NCBI GenBank assembly: GCA_042570545.1
Contig: JBHPGJ010000009.1
Coordinates: 1-60,623, forward strand
DNA from: Patescibacteria group bacterium
GTDB taxonomy: Bacteria > Patescibacteriota > Patescibacteriia > JBHPGJ01
Direction of reading: 5' to 3'
Length of the DNA stretch: 60,623 nt
Each line of letters begins with the position of its first letter. Within the stretch, counting starts at the first letter, position 1. Positions 24,375-39,293 of the stretch are shown in pieces. The notes below the pieces were generated by a model that had not been told where the DNA came from, searched no databases, and saw nothing but the letters and a program-made list of their open reading frames with translations. The position numbers and the translations under genes were made by a program.

Positions 24375-25769
24375 ATGTCCGATCTAGCAGCTTCCAGTTT
24401 AACAATCTGGGATCCATTTATAACATTATGGCAAATATTAACCAATGGTGGTTGGCTGGTTATCCTTGGTGCTTTTTTAGTCGGTTTTTGGTGGTGGTAT
24501 GTGATCCATATAAAGTTAAGTTATTCGGGCAAGATCGATTATGTATTATTAGCCATTGATGTGCCCAAAGATAACGAACAAAGTCCCAAGGCCGTTGAAC
24601 ATATTTTTTCACAATTACATGGCATATTAAAATCAGGCGATCTGATACAACGCTATGTCGCTGGATATAATCAAATGGGCTTTGCTTTTGAATTGGTTAG
24701 CATTGATGGTTATATACAATATTTGGTAAGAACGCCAACTAATTATAGAGATTTAGTAGAGTCTGCAATCTACGCTCAATATCCAGATGCCGAAATAAGC
24801 GAAGCTACTGATTATACAGAAAATATACCCCATGAATATCCAGATGACGAATATGACATGTATGGTTTTGAAATGAAATTGACCAATAAACAAGTCTATC
24901 CCATAAGAACATATCCAGAGTTTGAACATTCACTTTCACAAGAATTTAAAGATCCGATGGCGGCTTTGTTGGAAATGATGAGTCGTTTACAGGTAGGTGA
25001 GCAGGTATGGTTACAATTAAATGTTTATCCAGCCTCAGATAAAATATGGCGTGAGGAGGGGAAGGCTCTAATAAAAAAATTAGTTGGCGCCAAATCTGCC
25101 AATGGTAAAAGCGGTATGGTATCGCAAGTTGGTCAGGGCGTAAGTGAATCAATCACCGCTTCATTGATGCCCATTGGCGCGGATTCTGACAACAAAGTAG
25201 AAAACCGGTGGCCGACATTAATGCAACACCTAACCCCGTCCGAAAGATCAATTGTTGAAGCAATTGGGATAAAATTGTCAAAACTAGGATTTTTTTGCAA
25301 GATTAGATTAATATATTTGGGTAAAAAAAATGTCTATAATACCAGAACACGCATACAAGCAATTATGGGTACAATTAAACAGTTTAATTCCCAGGACTTG
25401 AATGGATTTAAACAAGATAAAAAAACTCGTACCAGAGCTGTCTATCCACCAATAAAATCAATAATTGACTGGAGAATAAAACGTCGGCGTAAAAAAATAA
25501 TGTTAGGATACAAATATAGATCTATTTTACGTGGACGTAATCAGTTTGTTCTTAATATAGAGGAACTGGCCTCAATCTGGCACTTCCCGGTACTGACGGT
25601 CAAAGCTCCGCTAGTGCAAAAAACAGAAAGTAAAAAGAGCGAACCACCCACCTCATTACCATTAGAAGGCGCCCAGATACCGATTGGACCGGAAGAAGAG
25701 GTGGAAGAAGCTAAAACTGCTGTGCCGACCGAAGAAAAAACACCAGCTAATTTACCATTTGTAGAATAA
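24375..25769 (+). CDS. Membrane-anchored conserved hypothetical protein, partner of the downstream ATPase
   Basis: N-terminal TM; VESAIYAQYPDAEI, YPIRTY..FE, LNIEELASIWHFP; TAATG coupling to the ATPase. Confidence 0.75.
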   Translation: MSDLAASSLTIWDPFITLWQILTNGGWLVILGAFLVGFWWWYVIHIKLSYSGKIDYVLLAIDVPKDNEQSPKAVEHIFSQLHGILKSGDLIQRYVAGYNQMGFAFELVSIDGYIQYLVRTPTNYRDLVESAIYAQYPDAEISEATDYTENIPHEYPDDEYDMYGFEMKLTNKQVYPIRTYPEFEHSLSQEFKDPMAALLEMMSRLQVGEQVWLQLNVYPASDKIWREEGKALIKKLVGAKSANGKSGMVSQVGQGVSESITASLMPIGADSDNKVENRWPTLMQHLTPSERSIVEAIGIKLSKLGFFCKIRLIYLGKKNVYNTRTRIQAIMGTIKQFNSQDLNGFKQDKKTRTRAVYPPIKSIIDWRIKRRRKKIMLGYKYRSILRGRNQFVLNIEELASIWHFPVLTVKAPLVQKTESKKSEPPTSLPLEGAQIPIGPEEEVEEAKTAVPTEEKTPANLPFVE

Positions 25770-27418
25770 TGAAAGAAGAAAAAAAAGACGAAGTTGTAGC
25801 TTTTGCTCTGACCAACTTCAGAAATGTTAAAAAGAAATTTGGGATATTGCCCGACGACCGACGGCGACATATTTATGTAATTGGAAAAACCGGTATGGGC
25901 AAATCAACATTGATTGAGAATATGATCATTCAGGACATTAGAAATGGTAAAGGGGTTGCGTTGATAGATCCGCTAGGTGATTTGGTTGAAAGAGTAATAA
26001 AATATATACCGGCTGATAGAATAAATGATGTAGTTTATATTAATCCGGCTGATCTGGATCATCCAATTGCCTTCAATGTACTAGAAGCTATTGATCCCAG
26101 TCATCATCATTTGGTTGCTTCCGGGTTGATCGGAGTGTTTAAAAAACTGTGGATTGATTCTTGGGGCCCAAGATTAGAATATGTACTTCGAAATACAATA
26201 TTATCGTTATTAGAATATCCTGGCTCAACTTTATTAGGTGTAACTAGATTATTAGTCGATAAAAAATATCGTCAAAAAGTTGTTGCCAAATTAACTGATC
26301 CAATTATTAAAGCGTTCTGGCTTGACGAATTTAACGCCTACAGTAATCAATTCAGAACCGAGGCGATATCACCAATTCAAAACAAAGTTGGGCAATTTTT
26401 ATCATCACCAGTCATAAGAAATATAGTCGGCCAACCAAAGAGTACCATTGATATGAGAGATATCATGGATAGCGGCAAAATATTATTATTAAATTTATCC
26501 AAAGGCAGGATTGGCGAGGACAATTCTTCATTGTTAGGCGCCATGATGATTACCAAATTACAGTTAGCGGCCATGAGCAGGATAGATACACCAGAAACAA
26601 ATAGACGTGACTTCTATATGTTCGTTGATGAATTCCAAAATTTTGCTACGGAGAGCTTTGCCACAATATTATCAGAAGCAAGAAAATATCGACTTAATAT
26701 ATTAATCGCACATCAATATATTGAACAATTAGACGAAACGGTTCAAGCTGCAGTTTTTGGAAACGTTGGCACGATTGTTGCCTTCCGCATCGGTGCCGCC
26801 GATGCCGAGTTTCTGGTAAAAGAATTTGAACCGATATTTTCTGAAACGGATCTAGTTAATTTAACTAAATATGATGTTTATTTGCGGTTGATGATTGATG
26901 GAGTTGCTTCAGATCCTTTTTCTGCTACCACCTTACCTCCATTAAGTGGAGAAGTGGGTAATCAAGAGAAAATAATACAAGCCTCTCGTGAGCGCTATTC
27001 GAATGATCGTGAAAAAATAGAGGAAAAGATAACACGTTGGTCGGGAGTTGAAGAAACATATAAGGCCACGGCCGAAGAAGATAATTTAGAAGCGAATCGT
27101 CATAATAATATAAGAAAAGCTCAAGCAGAAGATTTACACAGATCAGCTGATAAAAATATTGATTTAAAAAAAATATCACCTGGAAACCTAAAACCAGTAA
27201 TTAATCAACCAGAAAAAGATACAATATCATTAAGTGAGGCTATAAAAACCGGACCGGTATCTTTTAGCGGTAAGAGAAAAAAATCTGATAAAGATCGTAA
27301 CCGAAAAAATAACTATAATCAACCAAGAACTGATAAAAAAAACATTAACAAAAAAGATTTTCAAAATAATTCTTCACAGTTTAAGCCAATATCCCCGGGA
27401 CAAGTAGTAAAATTTTAA
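25769..27418 (+). CDS. VirD4/TraD/TrwB-HerA-like P-loop ATPase
   Basis: DRRRHIYVIGKTGMGKST (Walker A), IDPLGD, FYMFVDEFQNF (Walker B), SEARKY, AHQY, GNVGT; basic low-complexity tail. Confidence 0.88.
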   Translation: MKEEKKDEVVAFALTNFRNVKKKFGILPDDRRRHIYVIGKTGMGKSTLIENMIIQDIRNGKGVALIDPLGDLVERVIKYIPADRINDVVYINPADLDHPIAFNVLEAIDPSHHHLVASGLIGVFKKLWIDSWGPRLEYVLRNTILSLLEYPGSTLLGVTRLLVDKKYRQKVVAKLTDPIIKAFWLDEFNAYSNQFRTEAISPIQNKVGQFLSSPVIRNIVGQPKSTIDMRDIMDSGKILLLNLSKGRIGEDNSSLLGAMMITKLQLAAMSRIDTPETNRRDFYMFVDEFQNFATESFATILSEARKYRLNILIAHQYIEQLDETVQAAVFGNVGTIVAFRIGAADAEFLVKEFEPIFSETDLVNLTKYDVYLRLMIDGVASDPFSATTLPPLSGEVGNQEKIIQASRERYSNDREKIEEKITRWSGVEETYKATAEEDNLEANRHNNIRKAQAEDLHRSADKNIDLKKISPGNLKPVINQPEKDTISLSEAIKTGPVSFSGKRKKSDKDRNRKNNYNQPRTDKKNINKKDFQNNSSQFKPISPGQVVKF

Positions 27419-27452
27419 AGTTATTATCCCCATTGATAAACGTTTTTAATAT

Positions 27453-28514
27453 ATGCCAAAAATGAATAAAAAGGTTTTTCTGGCTATGTCGGGTGGAGTT
27501 GATTCATCGGTGGCGGCTGGCTTGCTACTGGAAAAAGGTTATAGAGTAACAGGAGTATTTATGAAGAATTGGACAGAAAATTTAGCCGGTGCGTGTCCTT
27601 GGGAAATTGACGAACAAGACGTCCGATTAGTATGTGGTCAATTGGGTATTAATTATCACGTTTATAATTTTGAAAAGGAATATAAAAGGCAAGTATTAAA
27701 TTATTTTTTTAGTGAATATAAATCAGGTCGTACACCGAATCCTGATGTACTATGCAATAGCAAAATAAAATTTAAAGAATTTCTGAATAAGGCCATGAAA
27801 CACGGTGCAGATTATATTGCTACCGGACACTATGTAAGAAAGTTAAATAATAAACTACTTAAGGGGACAGATGATAATAAGGATCAATCATACTTTTTAT
27901 GGCAGTTAAATAATAAACAAATTAATAAATCGTTATTTCCGGTTGGGCACTTAACAAAAGATAAGATCAGAAAATTAGCAAAAAAATGGTCTTTACCAAA
28001 CGCAAAAAAACCCGATAGTCAAGGCATATGTTTTATAGGCGATATCGACGTAGCAGATTTTCTACGAAATCATATAAAAATGAAAAGAGGAGAAATATTA
28101 ACTAGCGATGGCAAGTTCATTGGCTTCCATGATGGAATAATGTTTTATACTATTGGGCAAAGACACGGACTGGGTGTTGGTGGTGGCATACCGTATTATG
28201 TAATAAATAAAGATATAAAAAATAATACTTTGATTGTTGGACACGGCAATCGCGATCAAGCTTTATATAATAAAAAATTAACAGCTAATAAAACTAATTG
28301 GTTAATTAAACCTAAAAAAATATTATTTGATGCTAAAGTTAAGATTAGATATCGCCAACCAGATCAGGCGGCAAAGATAAAAATAAAGAATAATCAATTA
28401 CAGGTGGAATTTTATAAACCACAGAGGGCGATTACACCTGGTCAATCATTAGTAATATATAAGGGCAAAGCTTTAATCGGTGGAGCGGTAATAAATAAAG
28501 CACTAAAAACTTGA
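27453..28514 (+). CDS. mnmA: tRNA 2-thiouridylase MnmA
   Basis: AMSGGVDSS, RTPNPDVLCN, ATGHY, KDQSYFL, DSQGICFIG, TIGQR, PGQ. Confidence 0.98.
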   Translation: MPKMNKKVFLAMSGGVDSSVAAGLLLEKGYRVTGVFMKNWTENLAGACPWEIDEQDVRLVCGQLGINYHVYNFEKEYKRQVLNYFFSEYKSGRTPNPDVLCNSKIKFKEFLNKAMKHGADYIATGHYVRKLNNKLLKGTDDNKDQSYFLWQLNNKQINKSLFPVGHLTKDKIRKLAKKWSLPNAKKPDSQGICFIGDIDVADFLRNHIKMKRGEILTSDGKFIGFHDGIMFYTIGQRHGLGVGGGIPYYVINKDIKNNTLIVGHGNRDQALYNKKLTANKTNWLIKPKKILFDAKVKIRYRQPDQAAKIKIKNNQLQVEFYKPQRAITPGQSLVIYKGKALIGGAVINKALKT

Positions 28515-28538
28515 ATAATTGTACTTAACTGCTAAAAT
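28511..28538 (+). promoter_or_regulatory. Putative promoter for alaS (very short leader)
   Basis: TTGAAT (28511-28516), 16 bp spacer, TGc-TAAAAT (28533-28538), 9 nt before the ATG. Confidence 0.5.
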
Positions 28539-28547
28539 AATGCCACT

Positions 28548-30368
28548 ATGAAGGCTCAAGAACTAAGAAAAATATTTCTAAAATATTTTGCTGGACACGA
28601 TCACGCAGTTGTGAAATCATCAACGCTGATACCCAATAATGATCCCTCGGTATTATTAACCACTGCTGGTATGCAGCAATTTTTACCATATTTTACCGGC
28701 AAGGCAGATCCTAAAAAAGATTTTAAAAATATTAATTGTACGTCAGTTCAAAAATGTTTTCGCACATCAGATATTGATTCGGTAGGTGATATAGCGCATT
28801 TAACATTTTTTGAGATGTTGGGTAATTTTTCTTTTGGCGGTTATTTTAAAGAGGGAGCGATAGATTTTGCGATGCAATTTTTGGTTAAAGAGATTGGCCT
28901 GAAAGAAAGAAAATTATGGGCCACGGTATTTTCTGGTGATGAGGAAATTGATGAAGATATTGAAGCGATAAAATTTTGGCAGAAGCATATTGACAAAGAT
29001 AAAATTAGCGTATTTGGACGTGAAGAAAATTGGTGGGGCCCGACCGGAAAAACAGGACCCTGTGGCCCGTCATCAGAAGTGCATTATGATTTAACTGGTC
29101 GACCATGTGATAAAAAGAAAAAATGTATACCCAATTGCAACTGTGGCCGTTTTATTGAGGTATGGAATTTAGTTTTTATGCAATATAACAAGGACCGAAG
29201 TGGTAGCTACAAATCTTTGTCTAAGGGGCAAATTGACACCGGCATGGGATTAGAGAGAGTATTAACGGTGGTTAATGAAAAATCATCGATTTTTGATACC
29301 GACGTTTTTAATCCACTAGTTGAAAAGATAAAATCAGATTCAAATTTTGCATTTGAAGGAGTGAATAAGAGAATCAGAATAGTAGCTGATCATATAAAAG
29401 GTACAATATTTTTAATTAGTGATGATGTCTTGTTTAGCAATAAAGAACAGGGTTATATCATGAGAAGAATATTTAGAAGAGCGATTGATCAATTTAGGGA
29501 ATTACCAGTCAATATGTCAGAGTATGTTGAAGTCGTTATAGATATGTATAAATCATCATATCCTGAATTAAAGCAAAAACAAAAACACATAATTGATACC
29601 ATGAACAGGGAAATAGAGACGTATAAAAAAATAGTTAATATGAAAATTGAAGAAGTCTATAAGAACATTCAACAAAAAAAGAAAAAAACTAAATTGGCTG
29701 GCCGGGAGGGCCCAACCGCAAGAAAAATTAGTGCCGAAGAAGCATTTCAATTATATTCTACTTATGGTTTTTCTTTAAATAGACTCAAAGAAGAAGGATA
29801 TGAATTTGATGAAAAAGAATTTACCAATCAAATTGATGAACACAAAGAAATATCAAAAAAAGGTTCAGCAAAAAAATTTGGCGGCCATGGGATTGATGAT
29901 GAATCGATTTGGGATCCAAAAGAATTAGAGATTATGAAAATTTATCATACCGCCACTCATTTATTGCACGAAGCCTTAAGACGGGTGTTGGGGAAACACG
30001 TGAAACAAGAGGGCTCAGATATTAATCCCCATAGACTAAGGTTTGATTTTCAACATCCATCAAAATTAACTGATGCGGAAATTAAAAGTATTGAACGCAT
30101 TATTAATGAACAAATCTCTAAGAAATACGAAGTAAGTCATCGGGAAATGTCTTACGAAGATGCAATTGCTAGCGGTGCTTTAGCATTTTTTAAAGAAAAA
30201 TATCCTAAAAAAGTTACGGTATATTCGTTAGGCGATTTCAGTAAAGAAATTTGTGGTGGTCCCCACGTATCAAATACGGGCGAGATAAAAGGAAATTTTA
30301 AGATAACCTCAGAAAAGAGTAACGCTGCTGGGATAAGAAGAATAAAAGCAATAGTAGAACAATCTTGA
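28548..30368 (+). CDS. alaS: Alanine-tRNA ligase, short form without C-Ala domain
   Basis: TTAGMQQF, HLTFFEMLGNFSFG, GPCGPSSE, IDTGMGLER, editing motifs HTATHLLH and EICGGPHV, ends GIRRIKA. Confidence 0.97.
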   Translation: MKAQELRKIFLKYFAGHDHAVVKSSTLIPNNDPSVLLTTAGMQQFLPYFTGKADPKKDFKNINCTSVQKCFRTSDIDSVGDIAHLTFFEMLGNFSFGGYFKEGAIDFAMQFLVKEIGLKERKLWATVFSGDEEIDEDIEAIKFWQKHIDKDKISVFGREENWWGPTGKTGPCGPSSEVHYDLTGRPCDKKKKCIPNCNCGRFIEVWNLVFMQYNKDRSGSYKSLSKGQIDTGMGLERVLTVVNEKSSIFDTDVFNPLVEKIKSDSNFAFEGVNKRIRIVADHIKGTIFLISDDVLFSNKEQGYIMRRIFRRAIDQFRELPVNMSEYVEVVIDMYKSSYPELKQKQKHIIDTMNREIETYKKIVNMKIEEVYKNIQQKKKKTKLAGREGPTARKISAEEAFQLYSTYGFSLNRLKEEGYEFDEKEFTNQIDEHKEISKKGSAKKFGGHGIDDESIWDPKELEIMKIYHTATHLLHEALRRVLGKHVKQEGSDINPHRLRFDFQHPSKLTDAEIKSIERIINEQISKKYEVSHREMSYEDAIASGALAFFKEKYPKKVTVYSLGDFSKEICGGPHVSNTGEIKGNFKITSEKSNAAGIRRIKAIVEQS

Positions 30369-30393
30369 CAATCATAGACAGGATGTATATAAT
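30365..30393 (+). promoter_or_regulatory. Perfect consensus sigma70 promoter for the infA/alpha operon
   Basis: TTGACA (30365-30370), 17 bp spacer, TATAAT (30388-30393). Confidence 0.88.
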
Positions 30394-30399
30394 TCGGCT

Positions 30400-30540
30400 G
30401 ATACTTCAAGCATTAGTGAAGCCGTGAACTATTTTACTAGTGTTAGCCACAAAAAAGCTAATCACCTTGGTAAAAAATCGTTGAACCTGCAAAATAAATA
30501 GCAGAAAAATTCGTGGCTTGAGTAGCTACGTTTTTGTTTA
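30400..30540 (+). ncRNA. Putative structured attenuator leader (or stand-alone sRNA) upstream of infA
   Basis: Four hairpins, the last being an intrinsic terminator; AGCCAC (30445-30450) is complementary to the terminator arm GTGGCT (30513-30518). Confidence 0.6.
30512..30539 (+). terminator. Intrinsic terminator within the infA leader
   Basis: CGTGGCT-TGAGT-AGCTACG followed directly by TTTTTGTTT. Confidence 0.65.
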
Positions 30541-30548
30541 AGTAATAT

Positions 30549-30791
30549 ATGACAGATAATAAATCTTCATTTTCAAAAAATGATAAAGGGTTTATAGAAG
30601 TAACTGGTGAAGTTTTCGACTTGTTGCCAAATACAACTTTCAAAGTAAAGCTTGAAAATGGCCACGAAATTTTGGCACATTTATCAGGTAAAATGAGAAT
30701 GAATCGAATTAAAATTTTACCAGGGGACAAAGTTACTATTCAAATGAGTCCCTATGATTTAACCAAAGGTCGTATAACATATAGGAATTAA
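30549..30791 (+). CDS. infA: Translation initiation factor IF-1
   Basis: [37 protein letters not shown]...[13 protein letters not shown]. Confidence 0.98.
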
Positions 30792-30792
30792 A

Positions 30793-30906
30793 ATGAAAGT
30801 CAGATCATCAGTAAAAAAAATTTGTAAAAACTGCAAGATTGTGAAGCGCGGAAAAAGACTATATGTAATATGTGACAATCCCAAGCATAAGCAAAGACAA
30901 GGATAA
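30793..30906 (+). CDS. rpmJ: 50S ribosomal protein L36, zinc-ribbon form (too short for the ORF track)
   Basis: Translated by hand: [37 protein letters not shown]. Confidence 0.98.
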
Positions 30907-30908
30907 AT

Positions 30909-31301
30909 ATGGCAATAAGATTAGCCGGTATAACATTACCTAAAAAGAAGAGAATTGAAATTGCCCTTACTTATGTTTATGGCATTGGCAGGAATTTATC
31001 AAAAAAAATATTAATTCAAGCCGAAATTAATCCAAATATTAAAACGGATGATCTGCCGGAAGAAGATGTTAGTAAATTACGTGAGGTTATTGAGGGTAAG
31101 TTTAAAGTCGAGGGAGAACTACGACGCGATACTTTATCGAATATTAAAAGATTAAAAGAAATTTCCTCTTACCGCGGAAGTAGACACGCAAAGAGTTTAC
31201 CGGTACGCGGCCAACGAACTAAAACTAATTCGAGAACCGTTCGTGGCAATGTACGAAGAACCATGGGCTCGGGAAGAAAACCGTCAGCTGAAAAAACTTA
31301 A
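30909..31301 (+). CDS. rpsM: 30S ribosomal protein S13
   Basis: IALTYVYGIG, YRGSRH..LPVRGQRTKTNSRT. Confidence 0.98.
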   Translation: MAIRLAGITLPKKKRIEIALTYVYGIGRNLSKKILIQAEINPNIKTDDLPEEDVSKLREVIEGKFKVEGELRRDTLSNIKRLKEISSYRGSRHAKSLPVRGQRTKTNSRTVRGNVRRTMGSGRKPSAEKT

Positions 31302-31304
31302 TAT

Positions 31305-31757
31305 ATGAACGAAAAAGTGAAAACTGAAGGTAATTTAAAACCAGACACTAAAAAAGGTGATAAAGTTGGTGCTAAGTCAAAAACTTCCAAAAAGAAAAAA
31401 CGGAAAAGATTAGTGACTCATGGTCGTGCTTATATTTTAGCCACTTATAATAATACAATCATTACCTTTACTGACTCAGGTGGCGATGTCTTAGCACAAT
31501 CATCAGCTGGACGCGTAGGTTTCAAAGGACCAAAAAAGGCTACACCGTATGCAGCCGGAGTTATTGTTCGCGATGCAGCTGAAAAGCTGAGTGATTATGG
31601 GTTAAAGTATGTTGATGTATTTGTGCGTGGAGTGGGATCTGGACGCGAGGCGGCCGTAAGAGCTCTGGGAATAAATAATTTAGTGGTTATGAGTATTAAA
31701 GATATTACACCAATTCCTCATAATGGACCCAGACCACGTAAACCAAGGAGAGTATAG
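31305..31757 (+). CDS. rpsK: 30S ribosomal protein S11 (Lys-rich N-terminal extension)
   Basis: YNNTIIT, GFKGPKKATPYAA, DITPIPHNGPRPRKPRRV. Confidence 0.98.
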   Translation: MNEKVKTEGNLKPDTKKGDKVGAKSKTSKKKKRKRLVTHGRAYILATYNNTIITFTDSGGDVLAQSSAGRVGFKGPKKATPYAAGVIVRDAAEKLSDYGLKYVDVFVRGVGSGREAAVRALGINNLVVMSIKDITPIPHNGPRPRKPRRV

Positions 31758-31759
31758 TA

Positions 31760-32371
31760 ATGGCTAGGTACACAGGATCAAAATGTAAACAATGCCGACG
31801 AGCCGGGGAAAAGGTGTGTAATTCAGCAAAGTGTGGAACTATAAAAAGAAATTACCCGCCAGGAGTTCACGGACCGAAAAATGTACAACGTTTATCAGAT
31901 TATGGCACCCAATTAAGAGAGAAGCAAAAGACTAAGCATATTTATAGAATTCTTGAAAAACAGTTTAGAAGATATTTTCAAAATGCCACCAAGGCGGAAG
32001 GTGATGCCGGTGAAAATCTTTTACGCTTATTAGAATCACGTTTAGACAATGTTGTTTTTCGTTTAGGTTTTGCTGACACACGCGATGGCGCTAGACAATA
32101 TATAAAGCATAAACATATAGCGATTGATGGCAAAAAAGTGTCGATACCATCGTATAATGTTAAACCAGGTCAAAAAATTAATATTGTTAGTTCAAGTACC
32201 AATAAGCAGATATTCAAGGATCTGGCTAAGACAATGGCAAAAAAACAGGTTCCTGGTTGGTTAGAACTCAAACCAAAGGATAAAGAGGGAATAGTCAAAC
32301 ACTTACCTCAAAAAGACGATTTAAATGTCGGCGTTGATTCGCAGTTAATCGTTGAGTATTACTCAAGATAA
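31760..32371 (+). CDS. rpsD: 30S ribosomal protein S4
   Basis: MARYTG..CKQCRR, QLREKQK, LESRLDNVVFRLG, IVEYYSR. Confidence 0.98.
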   Translation: MARYTGSKCKQCRRAGEKVCNSAKCGTIKRNYPPGVHGPKNVQRLSDYGTQLREKQKTKHIYRILEKQFRRYFQNATKAEGDAGENLLRLLESRLDNVVFRLGFADTRDGARQYIKHKHIAIDGKKVSIPSYNVKPGQKINIVSSSTNKQIFKDLAKTMAKKQVPGWLELKPKDKEGIVKHLPQKDDLNVGVDSQLIVEYYSR

Positions 32372-32387
32372 TTAAATATTAATAAAT

Positions 32388-33143
32388 ATGGAAAATATAC
32401 TTTTACCAAATTCGACAAACATCACTGAAGATGAAAAAAATACAGCTACGATAACTATTGAACCATTGTATCCAGGCTATGGAACAACAGTAGGTAATGC
32501 TCTTCGTCGGGTTATGCTGTCTTCCTTACCCGGTGCGGCTGTTACCTCAGTTAAAATAATTGGTGTTGATCATGAGTTCTCAACAATTGATTTTGTTAAA
32601 GAAGATGTGGTTGAAATTATTCTTAATCTGAAAAAATTGAATTTTAAACTCAAGGGCGATGAGGCGGTAAAAGCAAATTTGAAAATTAGTAGCGTTAAAA
32701 AAGTTACTGGTAAAGAAATAAAATTGCCAACACAAGCGACTTTAATAAATACGGATCAACACATTGCTACAGTAACTGATGCTAAAAGTAAATTAGAAAT
32801 GGAGTTAACGATTGAAAATGGTCGTGGTTATGTACCTATAGAAACTCGGGACAAGGAAAAACAGGAGATTGGCAACATCGCCATTGATGCCATCTATACA
32901 CCCGTAAGAAATGTTAATTTTGAAAACGAACATGTTAGGGTTGGTCAGTTTACAAATTATGATAGGTTAAAATTGCAAGTTAAAACCGATGGTACGATTA
33001 CACCAACCGAGGCACTGTCACAAGCTACTAATCTCTTGATAGATCATTTCAAGGCGATAGAAGAAAATTCTAAGAGTAAAAATGATACCAAGGGGAAGAA
33101 AGATACAGTTAAAAAACCAGAAGTAAAGAACGTCGAACAATAA
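32388..33143 (+). CDS. rpoA: RNA polymerase subunit alpha, N-terminal domain only
   Basis: IEPLYPGYGTTVGNALRRVMLSSLPGAA, HEFSTI, GRGYVP, IDAIYTPV, RVGQFTNYDRL; 251 aa. Confidence 0.96.
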   Translation: MENILLPNSTNITEDEKNTATITIEPLYPGYGTTVGNALRRVMLSSLPGAAVTSVKIIGVDHEFSTIDFVKEDVVEIILNLKKLNFKLKGDEAVKANLKISSVKKVTGKEIKLPTQATLINTDQHIATVTDAKSKLEMELTIENGRGYVPIETRDKEKQEIGNIAIDAIYTPVRNVNFENEHVRVGQFTNYDRLKLQVKTDGTITPTEALSQATNLLIDHFKAIEENSKSKNDTKGKKDTVKKPEVKNVEQ

Positions 33144-33500
33144 ATGCGTCATAGAATTAAAAAGAAAACATTAAAGAGAAAAAGCGATCAAAGAAAGCTT
33201 TTGCTACGCACGATGGTAAACCAGTTTTTGAAAAATGGGTCAATAAAAACGACTTTAGTTAAAGGACGGGTTATTAAAAGTAAGGCCGAGCACTTGATAA
33301 AAGTTGGCATGACCAATGATTTAAATCATCGACGTAGACTTATTAAAGTAACTAACAATCCAAAGTTAGCCAACACAATAATAAATGAAATTAGTCCGAA
33401 ATACAAAGATCAAAAGGGTGGCTATTGTAGGTTGGTTAAAACCGGAAAAAGAAAAGGTGACGCTGCTATGACTGTTAAAATTAGTTTAATAGATAAATAA
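33144..33500 (+). CDS. rplQ: 50S ribosomal protein L17
   Basis: MRHR, IKTT, GGYCRL, RKGDAA. Confidence 0.95.
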   Translation: MRHRIKKKTLKRKSDQRKLLLRTMVNQFLKNGSIKTTLVKGRVIKSKAEHLIKVGMTNDLNHRRRLIKVTNNPKLANTIINEISPKYKDQKGGYCRLVKTGKRKGDAAMTVKISLIDK

Positions 33501-33501
33501 T

Positions 33502-33885
33502 TTGGATAAAAATATTGAAAATAAAATTACGGTTGATGCCAGCGGTCAAGCACTGGGAAGGTTAGCTACGAAATTAACACTATTATTGAGAGGGAAAGAC
33601 CTGCCAAATTGGAGACCAAACGTTGTAGTTAATAGAAAAATTGAGGTAATTAATCTCAAGGATATTAAATTTACGGCTAAAAAGGGCAAAGAATTATATT
33701 ACCGGCACAGTGGTTACCCCGGTGGATTGAAATCAATTAGCATGAAAGATCTTTGGAATAAAGACCAAGAATCTTTTTTACGTAAAGTAGTTACAGCTAT
33801 GTTACCGACTAATCGTTTGCGAAAACAATATATGAAAAATTTAATAATTATATCGAATGACAACAACACCGAAAAAGACAACTAG
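33502..33885 (+). CDS. rplM: 50S ribosomal protein L13 (compact, TTG start)
   Basis: VDASGQALGRLAT, LRGK, YYRHSGYPGGLK, MLP. Confidence 0.95.
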   Translation: MDKNIENKITVDASGQALGRLATKLTLLLRGKDLPNWRPNVVVNRKIEVINLKDIKFTAKKGKELYYRHSGYPGGLKSISMKDLWNKDQESFLRKVVTAMLPTNRLRKQYMKNLIIISNDNNTEKDN

Positions 33886-34375
33886 TAAAAAGGAAGTGAA
33901 AAAATTGAAAAAGATTGTAAAAAAGTCAAAAAGTATTGATGAAAAATTAATCTCTGATGTGGTTGAAAAAAAGAAAACTATCAGACGCAATTATATTTAT
34001 GCAGTTGGCCGTAGAAAGTCCGCTATCGCTCGAGCCAGATATTATCGAAAAGGATCAGGAGATATAATTGTAAACAATAAGTCGGTTGACGAATATTTTC
34101 CATTTAATTTTTATCGACAATCAGTCCAGGCGCCAATGAAGTTAATAGATGACAAACTTGAAGGTGATTTTACCATAAGGGTCCACGGCGGTGGTCCCCA
34201 GGGACAAGTAGAGGCTATTAGACTAAGTATTGCCCGATTGTTAGTTAAGATAAACAAGGATTTTCGTAGCCCATTAAAAAGAGCTGGGTATCTGAAGCGT
34301 GATCCAAGAATAAAAGAACGAAAAAAATACGGGCTAAAACGTGCTCGACGTGCGCCACAGTGGCAAAAGCGTTAA
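33857..34375 (+). CDS. rpsI: 30S ribosomal protein S9 (Lys-rich N-terminal extension)
   Basis: GRRKSAIAR, GGGPQGQ, RDPRIKERKKYGLKRARRAPQWQKR. Confidence 0.98.
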   Translation: MTTTPKKTTSKKEVKKLKKIVKKSKSIDEKLISDVVEKKKTIRRNYIYAVGRRKSAIARARYYRKGSGDIIVNNKSVDEYFPFNFYRQSVQAPMKLIDDKLEGDFTIRVHGGGPQGQVEAIRLSIARLLVKINKDFRSPLKRAGYLKRDPRIKERKKYGLKRARRAPQWQKR

Positions 34376-34387
34376 TTAAGTTTCTTA

Positions 34388-35851
34388 TTGCCGAGCCAAT
34401 TAAAAACTAATTCGATAACACGAAATACCACCTATTTGACGGTAGCATTTATTTTACAAAAAATACTATCGTTTATTTATTTTGTATATTATTCAAATAT
34501 CATAGGCTTTACTGACACCGGCAAATACATCTTTGCTATCTCGTTTGTAACAATTTTCGGGATAATAGTTGATTTGGGATTCAGTCCAGTGCTAATAAGA
34601 GAGGTGTCTAGAAATCGCGGAAATGCCCAAAGGTATCTAAATAATATATTAGGCGTCAAATTATATTTTTCAATCATTGCCGCATTATCAATAATAATTC
34701 TTGTTAATTTACTTAGATACCCCCTAGTAACTCAACAATTAGTATGGTTGGTCATGATGGTGATGATAGTCGAATCATTTACTTTAACTTTTTATGGTGT
34801 ATTTCGGGGATTCCAGAATTTAAAATATGAAGCCCTGGGCTCCGTATTATTTCAAATAATCACATTTACGTCCGGATTTATTGGACTTAGCATAACGCAT
34901 AATCCGCTGATTTTAGGCTTGGCCATAATTATCGGCAGCGTAGGAAATTTAGTATTTGCTATTATTTTCTTAAGAAAAAAACTTAATCTCAGTCTGAAAG
35001 TAAAATGGCACCACAATACCTTGAGATTTTTGGTCAGAACCGCAGTTCCGTTTTTTATTGCCGGTGTATTTATTAAAATATACGCCTATGTCGATATCGT
35101 CATGTTATCATTATTTAAAGGCGATGATTATGTTGGCTGGTATAGTATCGCTTACAAATTAACTTATTCATTACAATTCTTACCGATCGCTCTATCTAAT
35201 GCCATCTATCCAGCCTTTAGCCGTTTATTTATTGAAGCCAAAGATAAATTATCCAAATCATTTGAACGAGGTTTACAGTATGTAATTATTCTAAGCATAC
35301 CTGTAAGCATCGGCGCCGCTTACTTAGCCGCTGATATTGTAAATACCCTTTGGCCAACCTTTAGTGAATCAATCCCAGCACTCAGGATCGGTATCGCTGG
35401 TTTATTCTTTGTATTTGCTAATTTTATTATCTCGTCATTCCTTAACGCCTGTAATAGACAAAAAATCAATACGATAAATATTGGTTTAACTATGTTAGTC
35501 AATATAATTATGAACCTCATATTAATTCCTAAATTTGGACATAATGGAGCAGCCTTATCAGCTGTGGGCAGTGCGGTATTCTTGTTTATAATTGGCACAA
35601 TTTGGACCAGTCGTATAACCAAGATCAATTTTGGTTGGATAATAATAAAACTGTTCCAGGCAACATTTTCCGCTGTAATAATGATATTAATATTGCAAAT
35701 AATTAATTATAATCTCTTTATAAACATCGCGATTGGTGCTATGGTTTATGTAGTCGTCTTATTTATTGTAAGAGGGATAACCGTGAATGATATTAGAATA
35801 TTTTGGAAATCATTGGCTAGAAAAAAAGATAATCAAGAATTAACAGATTAA
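34388..35851 (+). CDS. Wzx-type oligosaccharide flippase (MOP family)
   Basis: RNTTYL, DLGFSPVLIREV, VGWYSIAYKL, NLILIPKFGHNGAA; polytopic membrane protein. Confidence 0.9.
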   Translation: MPSQLKTNSITRNTTYLTVAFILQKILSFIYFVYYSNIIGFTDTGKYIFAISFVTIFGIIVDLGFSPVLIREVSRNRGNAQRYLNNILGVKLYFSIIAALSIIILVNLLRYPLVTQQLVWLVMMVMIVESFTLTFYGVFRGFQNLKYEALGSVLFQIITFTSGFIGLSITHNPLILGLAIIIGSVGNLVFAIIFLRKKLNLSLKVKWHHNTLRFLVRTAVPFFIAGVFIKIYAYVDIVMLSLFKGDDYVGWYSIAYKLTYSLQFLPIALSNAIYPAFSRLFIEAKDKLSKSFERGLQYVIILSIPVSIGAAYLAADIVNTLWPTFSESIPALRIGIAGLFFVFANFIISSFLNACNRQKINTINIGLTMLVNIIMNLILIPKFGHNGAALSAVGSAVFLFIIGTIWTSRITKINFGWIIIKLFQATFSAVIMILILQIINYNLFINIAIGAMVYVVVLFIVRGITVNDIRIFWKSLARKKDNQELTD

Positions 35852-35857
35852 AAATGA

Positions 35858-37006
35858 ATGAATTTACTTGTTACTCATTCATTTCCACCACTAATTGGTG
35901 GTCTAGAAAATTACTGGCTTAATGTAGTAAAACAATCAAACCAACAATTTGTTGTTTTAACAAATCCACTGCCCAAAGGAACCTCAGAAATTGAAATTCC
36001 GAATGTAAAAATAATACGTCAAAAATTATGGGCCTGGCCGGTTTTAAAACCATCATGGCTTCCTTGGTTTTGGAAGTTACCAAACATTGTTAATAAATAT
36101 AGAATAGATTTAATACATTTTGGGCATTATACGCCGATAAGTACAGCAACCAGAATAAGAATGCCTAAAGTGCCGTATCTAATTTATTTTCATGGCACCG
36201 ACCTGATGAAAGCCGTGGCAGGTAATTTTAGTAGAAAAATGCTGGTAAATAATACTGATAAAGCGGCTAGAATAATATCTAATACTGAATATCTAAAAAA
36301 TATTGCTTTAAAAAATGGTATTAACGATAAAAAGATAAGTGTCGTGTATCCATCAGTATATCCTGATAAATATATTATTGATCAGGATTTGTCAGATAAA
36401 TTAAAAAATAAATACAATCTAAAAAATCGTCGTGTTATAATCAGTCTGGGCCGTCTTGAATATCATAAGGGTCAGGCTGTGGTTTTGCGGGCTTTAGAGA
36501 GAATAAAAAGTAATTTACCATCAATTATTTACCTAGTAATAGGCGATGGTTCTGAAAAAAACAATTTAATAAAATTGGCATCAAAACTGGGTCTCAACAA
36601 TAATGTAAAATTTATCGGCAAAATCGATGATAACCCACTCATAAAATCCACCTATCTATCTCTGGCAGAATTTACTATAATGCCAAGCTTGGAAACTAAT
36701 GATAGAAAGGAAAGTTTTGGATTATCAGCGGTAGAATCACTAGCCTGTTCAAAACCGGTTATTATGAGCAGACTTGGCGGAGCCAGTGAAATTATTGATA
36801 ATGATACAAATGGCTTGTTGGTTGAACCAAATAACGTAAACGAGTTAAAAAAAGCAATATTAAAATTACTTAATGATGATAATTCACTAATGAAAATGGG
36901 TGAAGTTGGACTTAAAACGGTTGAAGAAAAATTCAATTGGTATAAAAATCAAACGAAATTAACTCAAATTTGGGATGAAGCTAAGCGTTATAATACCAAC
37001 CTATAA
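35858..37006 (+). CDS. Glycosyltransferase family 4
   Basis: FPPLIGGLE, HGTD, GRLEYHKG, ESFGLSAVE (EX7E). Confidence 0.9.
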   Translation: MNLLVTHSFPPLIGGLENYWLNVVKQSNQQFVVLTNPLPKGTSEIEIPNVKIIRQKLWAWPVLKPSWLPWFWKLPNIVNKYRIDLIHFGHYTPISTATRIRMPKVPYLIYFHGTDLMKAVAGNFSRKMLVNNTDKAARIISNTEYLKNIALKNGINDKKISVVYPSVYPDKYIIDQDLSDKLKNKYNLKNRRVIISLGRLEYHKGQAVVLRALERIKSNLPSIIYLVIGDGSEKNNLIKLASKLGLNNNVKFIGKIDDNPLIKSTYLSLAEFTIMPSLETNDRKESFGLSAVESLACSKPVIMSRLGGASEIIDNDTNGLLVEPNNVNELKKAILKLLNDDNSLMKMGEVGLKTVEEKFNWYKNQTKLTQIWDEAKRYNTNL

Positions 37007-37658
37007 TCAGGTTATATTATTAAAAAAAACACTAGAATCATTAAGACAACAGTCATATGAAGATTTTGAAATAATTGTTGTTGATGATGGCTCCACCGAT
37101 GATACAGGTACATTTATTAAAAGCCAAGAAGGAATCATATATCTAAAGCAAAATAATTCGGGACCACCGGTGGCCAGAAATTCTGGAGCTAAAATCGCTC
37201 AGGGGGATTACTTATTATTTTGTGATTCTGATGTGATTATATATAAAAACATGTTGTCAGTCATGGTGAGTGAACTAAATAATAATCCGGATATTAATTT
37301 TGTATATGGTGGATTTAAATATGGTCGGAAAACATTTTCCGCATTACCGTTTAATATTGATAGATTGAAAAAAATGAACTACATATCAACCATGTCGATG
37401 TTAAGAAAAAAATACTTTCCCGGTTTTGACGAAAAATTACTAAGATATCAAGATTGGGATTTGTGGTTAACCATGGTCGAGGATGGAAGCATAGGAAAGC
37501 CTATCAATGATATATTATTTATGGTCCACCGGCATAAAAATGAAATTAGTAATTGGCTGCCTAGTTTTATAGCCTCAAGAAAGTTGTTTAACTTTTTGAA
37601 GCCCAGAAAACAGCTAGCAGCTGAAAAAATTATAAAAAATAAACATCACTTAAATTAA
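36975..37658 (+). CDS. Glycosyltransferase family 2
   Basis: SVIIPTYN, VVDDGSTD, ARN, FCDSD, QDWDLWL. Confidence 0.92.
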   Translation: MKLSVIIPTYNQVILLKKTLESLRQQSYEDFEIIVVDDGSTDDTGTFIKSQEGIIYLKQNNSGPPVARNSGAKIAQGDYLLFCDSDVIIYKNMLSVMVSELNNNPDINFVYGGFKYGRKTFSALPFNIDRLKKMNYISTMSMLRKKYFPGFDEKLLRYQDWDLWLTMVEDGSIGKPINDILFMVHRHKNEISNWLPSFIASRKLFNFLKPRKQLAAEKIIKNKHHLN

Positions 37659-37700
37659 GTGGCCAAACTGGTTATCATAGGTTAAAATGATGATTGTTTT

Positions 37701-39293
37701 ATGATTCTTAATGAACAAAAATTAATATCATTTAGATTATTATGGTGGTTATTACCAATTGGATTAACTATATATTTGGTATCCTTTTTGGCCTATTTAT
37801 ATCCAAATTTTAATGACGTAGCTTTTTGGGTAATTACTATTGTGTTTGCCGTGTTGTCATACAAAAAGATGGAATATGGCCTGATGATAATAGTAGCTGA
37901 ATTAATTCTAGGCAGTAAGGGCTATTTACTTTCGCAAAGCGTTTTTGATTACGTTATTTCATTAAGATTATCGTTCTTTATTGTAATATTTATTATTTGG
38001 ACCATAAAAAGGATCAGTGACAAACAATGGCGCTTTTGGAAAACGTCATTAAAATGGCCGTTTATATTATTTACTGTCTTTTTATCATATGGATTGGTTA
38101 ATGGATTATTAAATAGTAGCGCCAAGACAGCATTTTTTGATCTTAATGGATATTTATTTTTTGGATTACTAATTATTGGTTTTGATATTATTAGAAATCA
38201 AAAGAGTATATTAAATTTAATAAAAGTTATTATTAGTAGCAGTCTAATACTGGGATTATTCACTTTTATTCTGTTTATTAATTTTAGTTTTATTAATTAT
38301 AATGACGGCTTAGTAGTAGCCACCCAGGTAAACGAAGAACAATTAGCTAAGCTTGGACAAACTCCGGAAACAGCGCCTCTGGGACAGACGTTGGACCAGG
38401 ACCAAGAATTGTTAAAAGTTAGGTATGATGAATTAACATCCGATAAAAATATAAGTTACCGCTGGTTGAGAGATACCGGCTTAGCAGAAATATCATACCT
38501 GGGGGGAAAGTTTTTCAGAGTATTTTTTTATAGTCATTTATATCTAATGATAAGTTTTGTTTTATTTTTGATGATAGTTCTGAATAATTGGGACAAAATG
38601 ATCGCCAAATATAAATTTGTTAACACGATATATTTATTATTTATAACCTTTACTGTCCTAATAAGTTTTTCACGAAGTATTTTACTGGGTGTGATAATCG
38701 CCGTATTAGTATCATTGTTTTATATTTCTAAGAGGAGAAGATGGCAGCTTGTTGTGACAATATTATTATTATTAGTTGTTAGTTCATTGATAATAAAAGT
38801 AGTTGCACCAGAAACATATGAAGTGATTACCGATAGATTGCTTTCTTTTTATAATCCGCAAACAGAAACAGCAGCCGTTACTAGAGTTAGTCTACTCGGT
38901 GAAGTCTGGAATAAATTTATGGAAAATCCGGTAATGGGCAGTGGATTTGGGGCCAGTGTAGTTTTACCAAATATTATTCCCGGTTCTGATGATGTATATT
39001 TTACTAGTGTTTATTTATATGAATGGACATATTTAGATATTGCTGTAAAGATTGGATTATTAGGATTATTGGCATTAATTTGGTTGATTATCGGAATAAT
39101 AAAACAGGTTAATAAATTACGTGAATTCATTGAATATAAAATAATATACCTGTGGTTTACAATTACTTTGATTTCATTCATTGTTATTAATATAACTACT
39201 CCATATATTAATCACCCCCTGGGCATCGGCTGGCTGATAATAGTATATTTGGTCAGTTGGAACTTAGTTAAATTAAAAAACGTTGAATCATAA
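37701..39293 (+). CDS. O-antigen ligase/polymerase (WaaL/Wzy_C-like) membrane protein
   Basis: SFSRS, R...PVMGSGFG, YLDIAVKIGLLGL; polytopic. Confidence 0.8.
   Translation: MILNEQKLISFRLLWWLLPIGLTIYLVSFLAYLYPNFNDVAFWVITIVFAVLSYKKMEYGLMIIVAELILGSKGYLLSQSVFDYVISLRLSFFIVIFIIWTIKRISDKQWRFWKTSLKWPFILFTVFLSYGLVNGLLNSSAKTAFFDLNGYLFFGLLIIGFDIIRNQKSILNLIKVIISSSLILGLFTFILFINFSFINYNDGLVVATQVNEEQLAKLGQTPETAPLGQTLDQDQELLKVRYDELTSDKNISYRWLRDTGLAEISYLGGKFFRVFFYSHLYLMISFVLFLMIVLNNWDKMIAKYKFVNTIYLLFITFTVLISFSRSILLGVIIAVLVSLFYISKRRRWQLVVTILLLLVVSSLIIKVVAPETYEVITDRLLSFYNPQTETAAVTRVSLLGEVWNKFMENPVMGSGFGASVVLPNIIPGSDDVYFTSVYLYEWTYLDIAVKIGLLGLLALIWLIIGIIKQVNKLREFIEYKIIYLWFTITLISFIVINITTPYINHPLGIGWLIIVYLVSWNLVKLKNVES

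Follow-up and report, generated by a model that had tools for sequence, protein, structure and literature searches.

Several described leaders offer points of comparison for the leader reported below, which precedes infA and further ribosomal protein (r-protein) genes in a genome of the Patescibacteria. In Bacillus subtilis, the L20 leader heads the infC-rpmI-rplT operon, in which, as in the infA operon, an initiation factor gene comes first and r-protein genes follow (PMC1865079). L20 stabilises the terminator in this infC leader, and the same outcome, i.e., termination upon binding of an r-protein, is proposed here for the infA leader (PMC6097659). However, the L20 leader is built of several conserved helices and contains a site resembling rRNA, whereas the infA leader holds about 11 conserved bases among helices that vary between families, and rplT is absent from the infA operon. 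In Escherichia coli, the S4 operator of the alpha operon (RF00140) controls rpsM-rpsK-rpsD-rpoA-rplQ, a block that is common to the infA operon, yet this operator acts on translation, as a pseudoknot that spans the start of rpsM, while the element described here precedes infA and relies on a terminator (PMC10931766). Predicted S4 leaders from Clostridia and Fusobacteriales, together with L13 leaders and an L17 leader, are lineage-restricted candidates that comparative genomics has revealed ahead of gene sets overlapping with the infA operon (PMC7247131). In the accessible part of that paper, Table 1 holds no entry for Patescibacteria or upstream of infA, and the terms 'infA' and 'CPR' have 0 occurrences; it is this table and the covariance models that set the infA leader apart from those candidates, and the consensus diagrams could show a likeness. 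Finally, TRAP of the B. subtilis trp operon occupies the antiterminator strand and thereby gives way to the terminator, a logic that is the only feature shared with the infA leader, as TRAP requires 11 (G/U)AG repeats and the infA leader has one 11-base motif (PMC3064811). A literature search, which reached few subscription journals, found no paper on an infA leader or an r-protein leader in Patescibacteria, and infA is not mentioned in the accessible part of PMC2965389.

The window, i.e., the whole stretch of 60,623 nucleotides that was analysed, had been the subject of an earlier note, which proposed an undescribed attenuator ahead of infA. A scan against Rfam, as advised there, yielded 0 matches for the window; the strongest sub-threshold hit, with E 0.12, lies over the terminator only. 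RF00140 (Alpha_RBS) had no match at the infA locus, and RF03140 (S4-Clostridia) and RF00555 (L13_leader) had none in the genome, where the result for S4-Clostridia has to be read together with its positive control, in which 8 Bacillota loci also gave no match with the family present in the library. In one genome of the Andersenbacteria order, a sub-threshold Alpha_RBS match (27.9 bits against a cut-off of 38) was observed over the rpsM start at L449:1793-1868, which may be mere coding similarity. Taken together with the comparative data below, the infA leader is regarded as a new candidate family of r-protein attenuators. From the original proposal, the undescribed leader with mutually exclusive folds stood, and this leader proved to be conserved across lineages, while the helix chosen as antiterminator (AGCCAC) is not its conserved element and the ligand named first (S4) is disfavoured.

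Promoter and operon

The operon infA-rpmJ-rpsM-rpsK-rpsD-rpoA-rplQ-rplM-rpsI extends over 30549..34375 of the plus strand, with all nine ORFs matching NCBIfam models above cut-off, intergenic gaps of at most 16 nt and rplM starting 1 nt past rplQ. Between alaS (stop at 30368) and infA (ATG at 30549) lie 180 nt, and a σ70-type promoter, TTGACA-17-TATAAT, is found on the plus strand at 30365..30393 (TTGACA from 30365, TATAAT at 30388-93), so placed that the alaS stop codon (30366-68) sits within the -35 box. The perfect promoter, the leader of about 150 nt and the mostly tight gene spacing had already been described and hold up: the promoter scores 12/12, and 43 of 56 gaps in the window, based on a crude ORF set, are shorter than 20 nt. 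Among 56 promoter-like sites in 25,000-38,000 it is the sole 12/12 match; genome-wide, this score is reached by 11 of 59 strong promoters. According to the promoter spacing, transcription would start at about 30400-01. Since no further promoter-like site of at least 9/12 lies between the leader promoter and infA, transcripts of infA must traverse the terminator hairpin.

For comparison, infA upstream regions were collected from 177 loci of the same class, a non-random sample drawn from the top IF1 or S13 matches; one locus without infA and 6 of the other 176 without a promoter by the rule used (at least 9/12) were left out, which leaves 170. Genomes of this class, presumably ABY1, bear labels such as Kerfeldbacteria and Patescibacteria group. 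The 60 relatives of the window genome belong to the same class and none to the same order, with best IF1 matches of 81% over a partial alignment (metagenomes) and 78% (genomes), so that the comparison is one with distant genomes. The full nine-gene set was present in 78 of 80 regions read, one of the others being cut by a contig end and one (genome G281) lacking rpsD. Among the 53 motif-bearing regions read, the nine-gene operon is seen in 51; rpsD is lacking in one of the other two, and a contig end truncates the second.

Some features of the neighbouring genes were observed in passing. AlaRS of the window (28548-30368) is a short form of 606 aa (PRK01584) devoid of the C-terminal domain, and alaS often lies directly upstream of infA within the class. 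RpoA (32388-33143) comprises 251 aa without the C-terminal domain and covers profile positions 2-246 of 320; the rpoA-rplQ spacing, viewed in regions that include L475-L494, suggests a short RpoA throughout the class, while in the Andersenbacteria order this spacing has room for a full-length alpha subunit. Judged by eye, the start codon of infA in many genomes of the latter order (L446-L474) is apparently TTG, CTG or GTG and not ATG.

A conserved motif at the 5' end of the leader

The conserved core of the leader, which the earlier note had overlooked, is an 11-base motif, CA(A/C/G)G(A/C)H(U/C)UHG(G/U). In the window it reads CAAGCATTAGT (30407..30417, plus strand; pattern CA[ACG]G[AC][ACU][UC]U[UCA]G[GU], alignment A5) and is the predicted site of a ligand. 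The strict pattern occurs in 36 of the 170 class leaders as compared with 7.5 +/- 2.7 in 200 dinucleotide shuffles, where the window had influenced the first version of the pattern and the relatives counted are not independent. After the addition of 13 leaders from orders chosen for carrying the motif, a matrix trained on 46 sites, with the window left out, reached its threshold of 11 bits in 48 of 183 infA leaders from 15 families, 13 of the 48 stemming from the motif-targeted orders. The window motif scores 12.8 bits at 30407, with 8.6 bits marking the 99th percentile of shuffled leaders; matches this good are expected by chance 0.0016 times per 110 nt. It is also the top-scoring site among the leaders of 59 strong promoters of its own genome, the runner-up having 7.8 bits. 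Moreover, it begins 13 nt past the -10 box, an offset that families f27, f32 and f47 share within one base, and in all motif leaders the motif is located between promoter and infA.

Beyond the class, 2 of 29 sampled loci and, in another small class, 1 of 6 loci reached 11 bits. In the Andersenbacteria order, so called after the label of one member, which is out of class and did not contribute to the matrix, 22 of 30 loci did so (one of the 22 being the discovery match), mostly 14-20 nt past the -10 box. An alignment of 63 sites has C0, A1 and G3 throughout, U7 in 60 sites and G9 in 59, which is to be read with the fact that these sites were chosen by a pattern favouring the same letters. A matrix built from out-of-class sites only has its window match at the same position, with a modest 4.7 bits (0.036 expected in 60 nt).

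Two groups of less typical sites were seen. The f65 leaders L250, L255, L336, L305 and L299 have divergent motif-like sites of 6.9-10.1 bits in a similar place, possibly degenerate members. In a Moranbacteria locus (L172:104-199), CAAGCATTAGG precedes infA with 15.8 bits and no terminator was seen; this could be a translational variant or chance.

Predicted alternative folds in the window

The hairpins listed in the earlier note were all recovered, on the plus strand and at the coordinates it gave. Fold prediction yields a small hairpin CTTCA/TGAAG at 30404..30421 (30404-08/30417-21), the motif lying in its arm and loop; a long interrupted stem at 30432..30475 (30432-47/30457-75) with two 3' bulges, which forms a lineage-variable middle element; a weak 4-bp hairpin CTGC/GCAG at 30487..30504 (30487-90/30501-04); and an intrinsic-terminator-like hairpin with U-tract at 30512..30539. 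The latter consists of a hairpin at 30512-30530, whose stem 30512-18/30524-30 has 7 bp including one G-U (about -8.4 kcal/mol), and the U-tract TTTTTGTTT at 30531-39, after which 9 nt remain before the infA ATG at 30549. For 30395-30552 as a whole, folding gave z = -2.44, and 3 of 200 shuffles were equally stable. All fold energies and probabilities given here and below are equilibrium predictions.

In the minimum-energy fold of 30400-30530 (-28.8 kcal/mol), AAGCCGUGAA (30419-28) is paired to UUCGUGGCUU (30510-19) and hence to the terminator arm. The 5' strand of this antiterminator, AAGCCGTGAA (30419..30428, plus strand), forms 10 bp, two of them G-U, and is extendable back into the motif; its pair probability amounts to 0.85-0.86 at transcript ends 30526-30. 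The terminator fold of the same segment has -27.3 kcal/mol, and terminator and antiterminator are predicted to be mutually exclusive and of similar stability. Upon addition of the U-tract the terminator fold becomes the best one (-29.6 kcal/mol). The hairpin CTTCA/TGAAG is present in the terminator-state fold and is thus a predicted anti-antiterminator. Forcing 30404-21 to remain unpaired raises the terminator probability from 0.13 to 1.0. Taken by itself, the window antiterminator is not significant, as an equally good duplex arises in 17% of shuffles. Blocks placed elsewhere in the window leader as controls likewise increase predicted termination, to 0.62 on average and 0.96 at most, as against 0.97 for the motif block.

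The antiterminator proposed originally was AGCCAC (30445..30450, plus strand), which is indeed the exact complement of GTGGCT (30513-18) in the terminator arm. Such an AGCCAC complement occurs in 3.2% of 1000 upstream-leader shuffles, and some Watson-Crick complement of 6 bp to either arm or loop of the terminator in 21% of them, so that the complementarity taken alone exceeds chance only modestly. In the growing chain a 13-bp stem (30409-21/30432-44) is predicted to form first, in which the 5' strand of the long stem pairs with 30409-21 and AGCCAC is freed; later the 10-bp helix takes over. Accordingly, the probability of AGCCAC/GUGGCU declines from 0.73 at end 30519 to 0.01 at end 30530, where its fold (-25.0 kcal/mol) is 3.8 kcal/mol less stable than the helix 30419-28/30510-19. 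As the long stem that harbours AGCCAC is without sequence counterpart in the relatives' leaders inspected, its helix is not a conserved antiterminator and may instead be a transient, window-specific route; in the fold predictions both routes require the motif strand. A third antiterminator, UCAAGC/GCUUGA (30406-11/30516-21), the homologue of the f21 helix, was rejected with a probability of at most 0.11 from a 30400 start.

RNA begun upstream of 30395 behaves differently in the prediction, as CGGCU/AGCCG forms and the terminator is favoured (0.81 at end 30530, 0.97 at end 30538). Between the alaS stop and the leader hairpin, no other terminator-like site is listed. Because read-through RNA from alaS contains 30395-99, which closes the 5' hairpin and favours termination, the hairpin may also end upstream transcripts. 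With regard to leader peptides, the only short ORF seen across the antiterminator in the window is GTG-AAG-CCG-TGA at 30416-27, and a conserved start codon is absent from motif alignment A5, the part of the relatives' leaders that was compared.

Motif and terminator in relatives

A hairpin with U-tract ends 45 of 49 motif leaders, the remaining 4 being without terminator; by an automatic rule, 8 of 24 out-of-sample leaders lack one. The motif or the bases just 3' of it are complementary to the 5' arm or loop of the terminator hairpin, by means of partner strands that are specific to each family, e.g., GGCAAGA/UCUUGCC in f81, GGGCAGA/UCUGCCU in f30 and GACUUAGGAAUGGC/GCCAUUUUUAAGUU in f27. Sequestration of the terminator arm by upstream RNA averages 0.63 in motif leaders versus 0.47 after shuffling, is positive in 12 of 14 motif families and passes the 10% level in 20 of 45 leaders; for the window the values are 0.80 and 0.66, with 1 of 30 shuffles as high. 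In motif-less leaders it is 0.36 versus 0.34, with 11 of 64 at the 10% level and 16 of 32 families positive. Judged by duplex energy, just 19 of 43 leaders from the class surpassed 95% of their shuffles, as did 4 of 16 from outside the sample. Two f31 leaders were left out of the duplex and masking counts because their motif lies within the hairpin.

In 33 of 43 motif leaders, the default fold is predicted to disfavour the terminator. When motif positions -2 to +14 (17 bases) are forced unpaired, the terminator probability rises from 0.22 to 0.72 over the 43 leaders, and 26 of the 33 leaders with read-through as default are flipped. With a sliding 17-nt block, the effect peaks at the motif (+0.50) and is about +0.12 at offsets of 18-30, though the motif block exceeds every control block in just 17 of 27 leaders. 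Out of sample, masking raises the terminator probability from 0.17 to 0.72 and flips 10 of 12 leaders.

Covariation was found for some of the family-specific helices. It is clear in f21, where 7 pairs changed on both sides, the paired percentage was reached in 0 of 500 shuffles and the covariation score in 3 of 500, while f27 displays modest covariation (16 of 500 shuffles). In the order comprising f81, f61 and f106, the motif helix covaries weakly (changes on both sides were matched by 26 of 500 shuffles, the paired percentage by 108 of 500), and no covariation is evident for the helix adjacent to the motif, whose value was equalled in 394 of 500 shuffles. Of the MAFFT alignments, A1 (2 of 7 rows shifted by one base) and A4 were misaligned at their 3' ends, and pairs of A4 were not counted. 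Opposite the motif, the pairing strand varies among relatives. A covariance model of f21 misses the window and matches other families at best with E = 0.15. As this model misses the window and the helices differ, the conserved unit appears to be the short sequence, around which the helices vary.

A hairpin with U-tract is likewise present in 64 of 121 motif-less leaders and forms by default in 48 of the 64. Hairpins of this kind cannot all terminate efficiently, and that of the window may leak as well; furthermore, the operon is essential, and such hairpins must therefore often be read through, which weakens any claim of efficient termination. As a separate observation, motif-less leaders of f16, f42, f45, f46, f49 and f66 (e.g., L002, L005, L028 and L195) end in a hairpin that is closed at its base by AAUUCU...AGAAUU and precedes UUUAUUUU, and for most of them no antiterminator is predicted; those of f16 have a conserved upstream stretch of their own and some sequestration.

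Proposed regulation and alternative explanations

That the infA leader is a regulated RNA switch of some kind appears highly probable to us. On balance, we also incline to a complete model with read-through as the default, in which the motif strand would pair with the terminator and the operon would be transcribed, until a protein, likely encoded by the operon itself, covers the motif; the terminator would then form and the RNA would stop at about 30538. The outcome would be negative autoregulation of the operon, which we infer in the same manner as termination and protein binding. Rather tentatively, this can be extended to an old attenuator specific to Patescibacteria, in which an 11-base single-stranded site has been kept while the helices were rebuilt in each lineage, with a ligand other than S4 that would control IF1, the RNA polymerase alpha subunit and seven r-proteins from one site, and that possibly belongs to those without an established leader (S13, S11, S9, L36, IF1, alpha).

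An unlikely alternative retains the same two-state switch and assigns it a signal other than a repressor from the operon, such as a ligand that stabilises read-through, NusA, NusB-S10, IF1 acting as RNA chaperone, or transcription speed. IF1 has antitermination activity, NusA and NusB are encoded in the genome (97% complete) and Rho was not found there, and in many leaders the motif lies inside the read-through helix, with a mean pairing of 0.5-0.8 at positions 2-15. An activator is nevertheless unneeded, as 33 of 43 leaders are predicted to adopt the read-through fold by default, and conservation is lacking on the strand opposite the motif. A boxA-like function is opposed by the rRNA upstream regions of 6 genomes, where the best motif match (11.2 bits) lies far upstream in one; a site near rRNA in genome G255, which by eye looks boxA-like, scores 2.6 bits and is unlike the infA motif of that genome.

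Somewhat less likely still is that hairpin and U-tract form an unregulated leaky terminator or pause, which damps a very strong promoter and ends read-through from the secD...mnmA-alaS genes, the motif being kept for another reason. The default-forming hairpins of motif-less lineages (48 of 64), the preference of RNA from upstream of 30395 for the terminator and the fact that no other terminator-like site separates the alaS stop from the leader hairpin would fit this explanation. It leaves aside that terminator sequestration tracks the motif, that the masking effect peaks there and that f21 and f27 covary; in addition, with no promoter-like site of at least 9/12 between the leader promoter and infA, transcripts of infA must pass through it.

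A switch acting on translation of infA, by way of access to the U/A-rich stretch ahead of the start codon, is improbable: in 45 of 49 leaders the alternative hairpin directly precedes a U-tract, and the window AUG is uncovered in both predicted folds, even though the U-tract begins about 4-27 nt from the start codon in most motif leaders, 4 of 49 are without terminator and the motif helix of L006 (f47) seems, by eye, to cover the start region. Least probable of all is a DNA operator for a transcription factor, to which an 11-base direct repeat (CAAG...CAAG; seen in f81, f19, f31, f61 and f35) resembling sites of the OmpR/PhoB family, and a near-fixed position just past the promoter in the out-of-class order, f27, f32, f47 and the window might point, since the out-of-class order lacks the second copy, which elsewhere is explained by terminator-arm pairing, the motif is always on the same strand, no second site occurs behind any of 58 other strong promoters, and for 22 other genome matches of at least 12.5 bits no promoter is visible by eye within the 40 bases before them.

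The genomes of Patescibacteria are reduced, and to our knowledge little RNA-level regulation has been described in them. A switch retained across at least three classes would indicate that these bacteria still balance their ribosome parts through feedback. If true, repression by a product of the operon would moreover add an alpha-type operon under termination control upstream of infA, apparently without S4.

The candidate ligand

S4, the ligand named first in the earlier note, is disfavoured by the gene order of a single genome: in G281, a motif of 20.4 bits, an antiterminator of 9-10 bp and a terminator all precede infA, although rpsD has left the operon and lies about 198 kb away (L413:1435-2103), where it has a separate promoter and a motif-free leader of about 19 nt. 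The gene of L13, rplM, is retained in every motif-bearing operon read to its end. Eckert and Weinberg guess the ligands of r-protein leaders by precedent (PMC7247131), and L13 is an established autogenous repressor in E. coli (PMC10931766). With S4 set aside, the precedent rule points to L13, which is our guess. Dividing the chances by judgement, we regard L13 as a tentative first choice, L17 as a doubtful one and S4 as a poorer one yet, with the remainder shared by S13, S11, S9, L36, IF1 and alpha. With so short a motif and one RNA 3' end as the read-out, nine purified proteins should suffice to find the ligand.

The comparison of the leader with the rRNA sites of S4 or L13, another check proposed in the earlier note, revealed no significant mimicry: for 23S helices 25, 61, 89 and 91 and the S4 junction of 16S rRNA, resemblances lacked significance and failed to follow the variation among leaders. 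The best matrix match in this comparison had 10.0 bits (0.18 expected), and no 16S match above 8.7 bits occurred in 4 of 5 genomes scanned. The segment CAAGCAGUCGG of the genome's own 23S rRNA (position 727), presumably helix 25 and a contact of L13/L20, has 10 of 11 allowed motif letters, with 1.5 such sites expected by chance. Another candidate, an 11/12 match at position 1383 of the same 23S rRNA, is absent from 5 relatives and was dropped.

In family f128 (L475, L478, L480, L485 and L489), S4 was observed to lack about 40 N-terminal residues, including a cysteine cluster of the window's S4. The C-terminal part of S4 binds RNA alone, which is why this truncation was discounted as evidence on the ligand.

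Palindromes and rRNA promoters

No 16S gene was found in the assembly of the window genome. Its 23S rRNA gene (G000:C1:46381-46900, minus strand) is transcribed from a separate TTGACA/TATAAT promoter by prediction, and its leader contains a hairpin with U-tract. This promoter is among those with an upstream palindrome GCTAA-N1-4-TTAGC, which was noticed about 10-40 bp upstream of TTGAC-type boxes (G000:C1:46678, C1:75089 and C12:24174) and also upstream of the infA promoters of L006, L017, L023, L024, L026 and L028. A looser GCTAA/TTAGC palindrome lies upstream of 28 of the 183 infA promoters, and the element looks like a putative binding site of a transcription factor.
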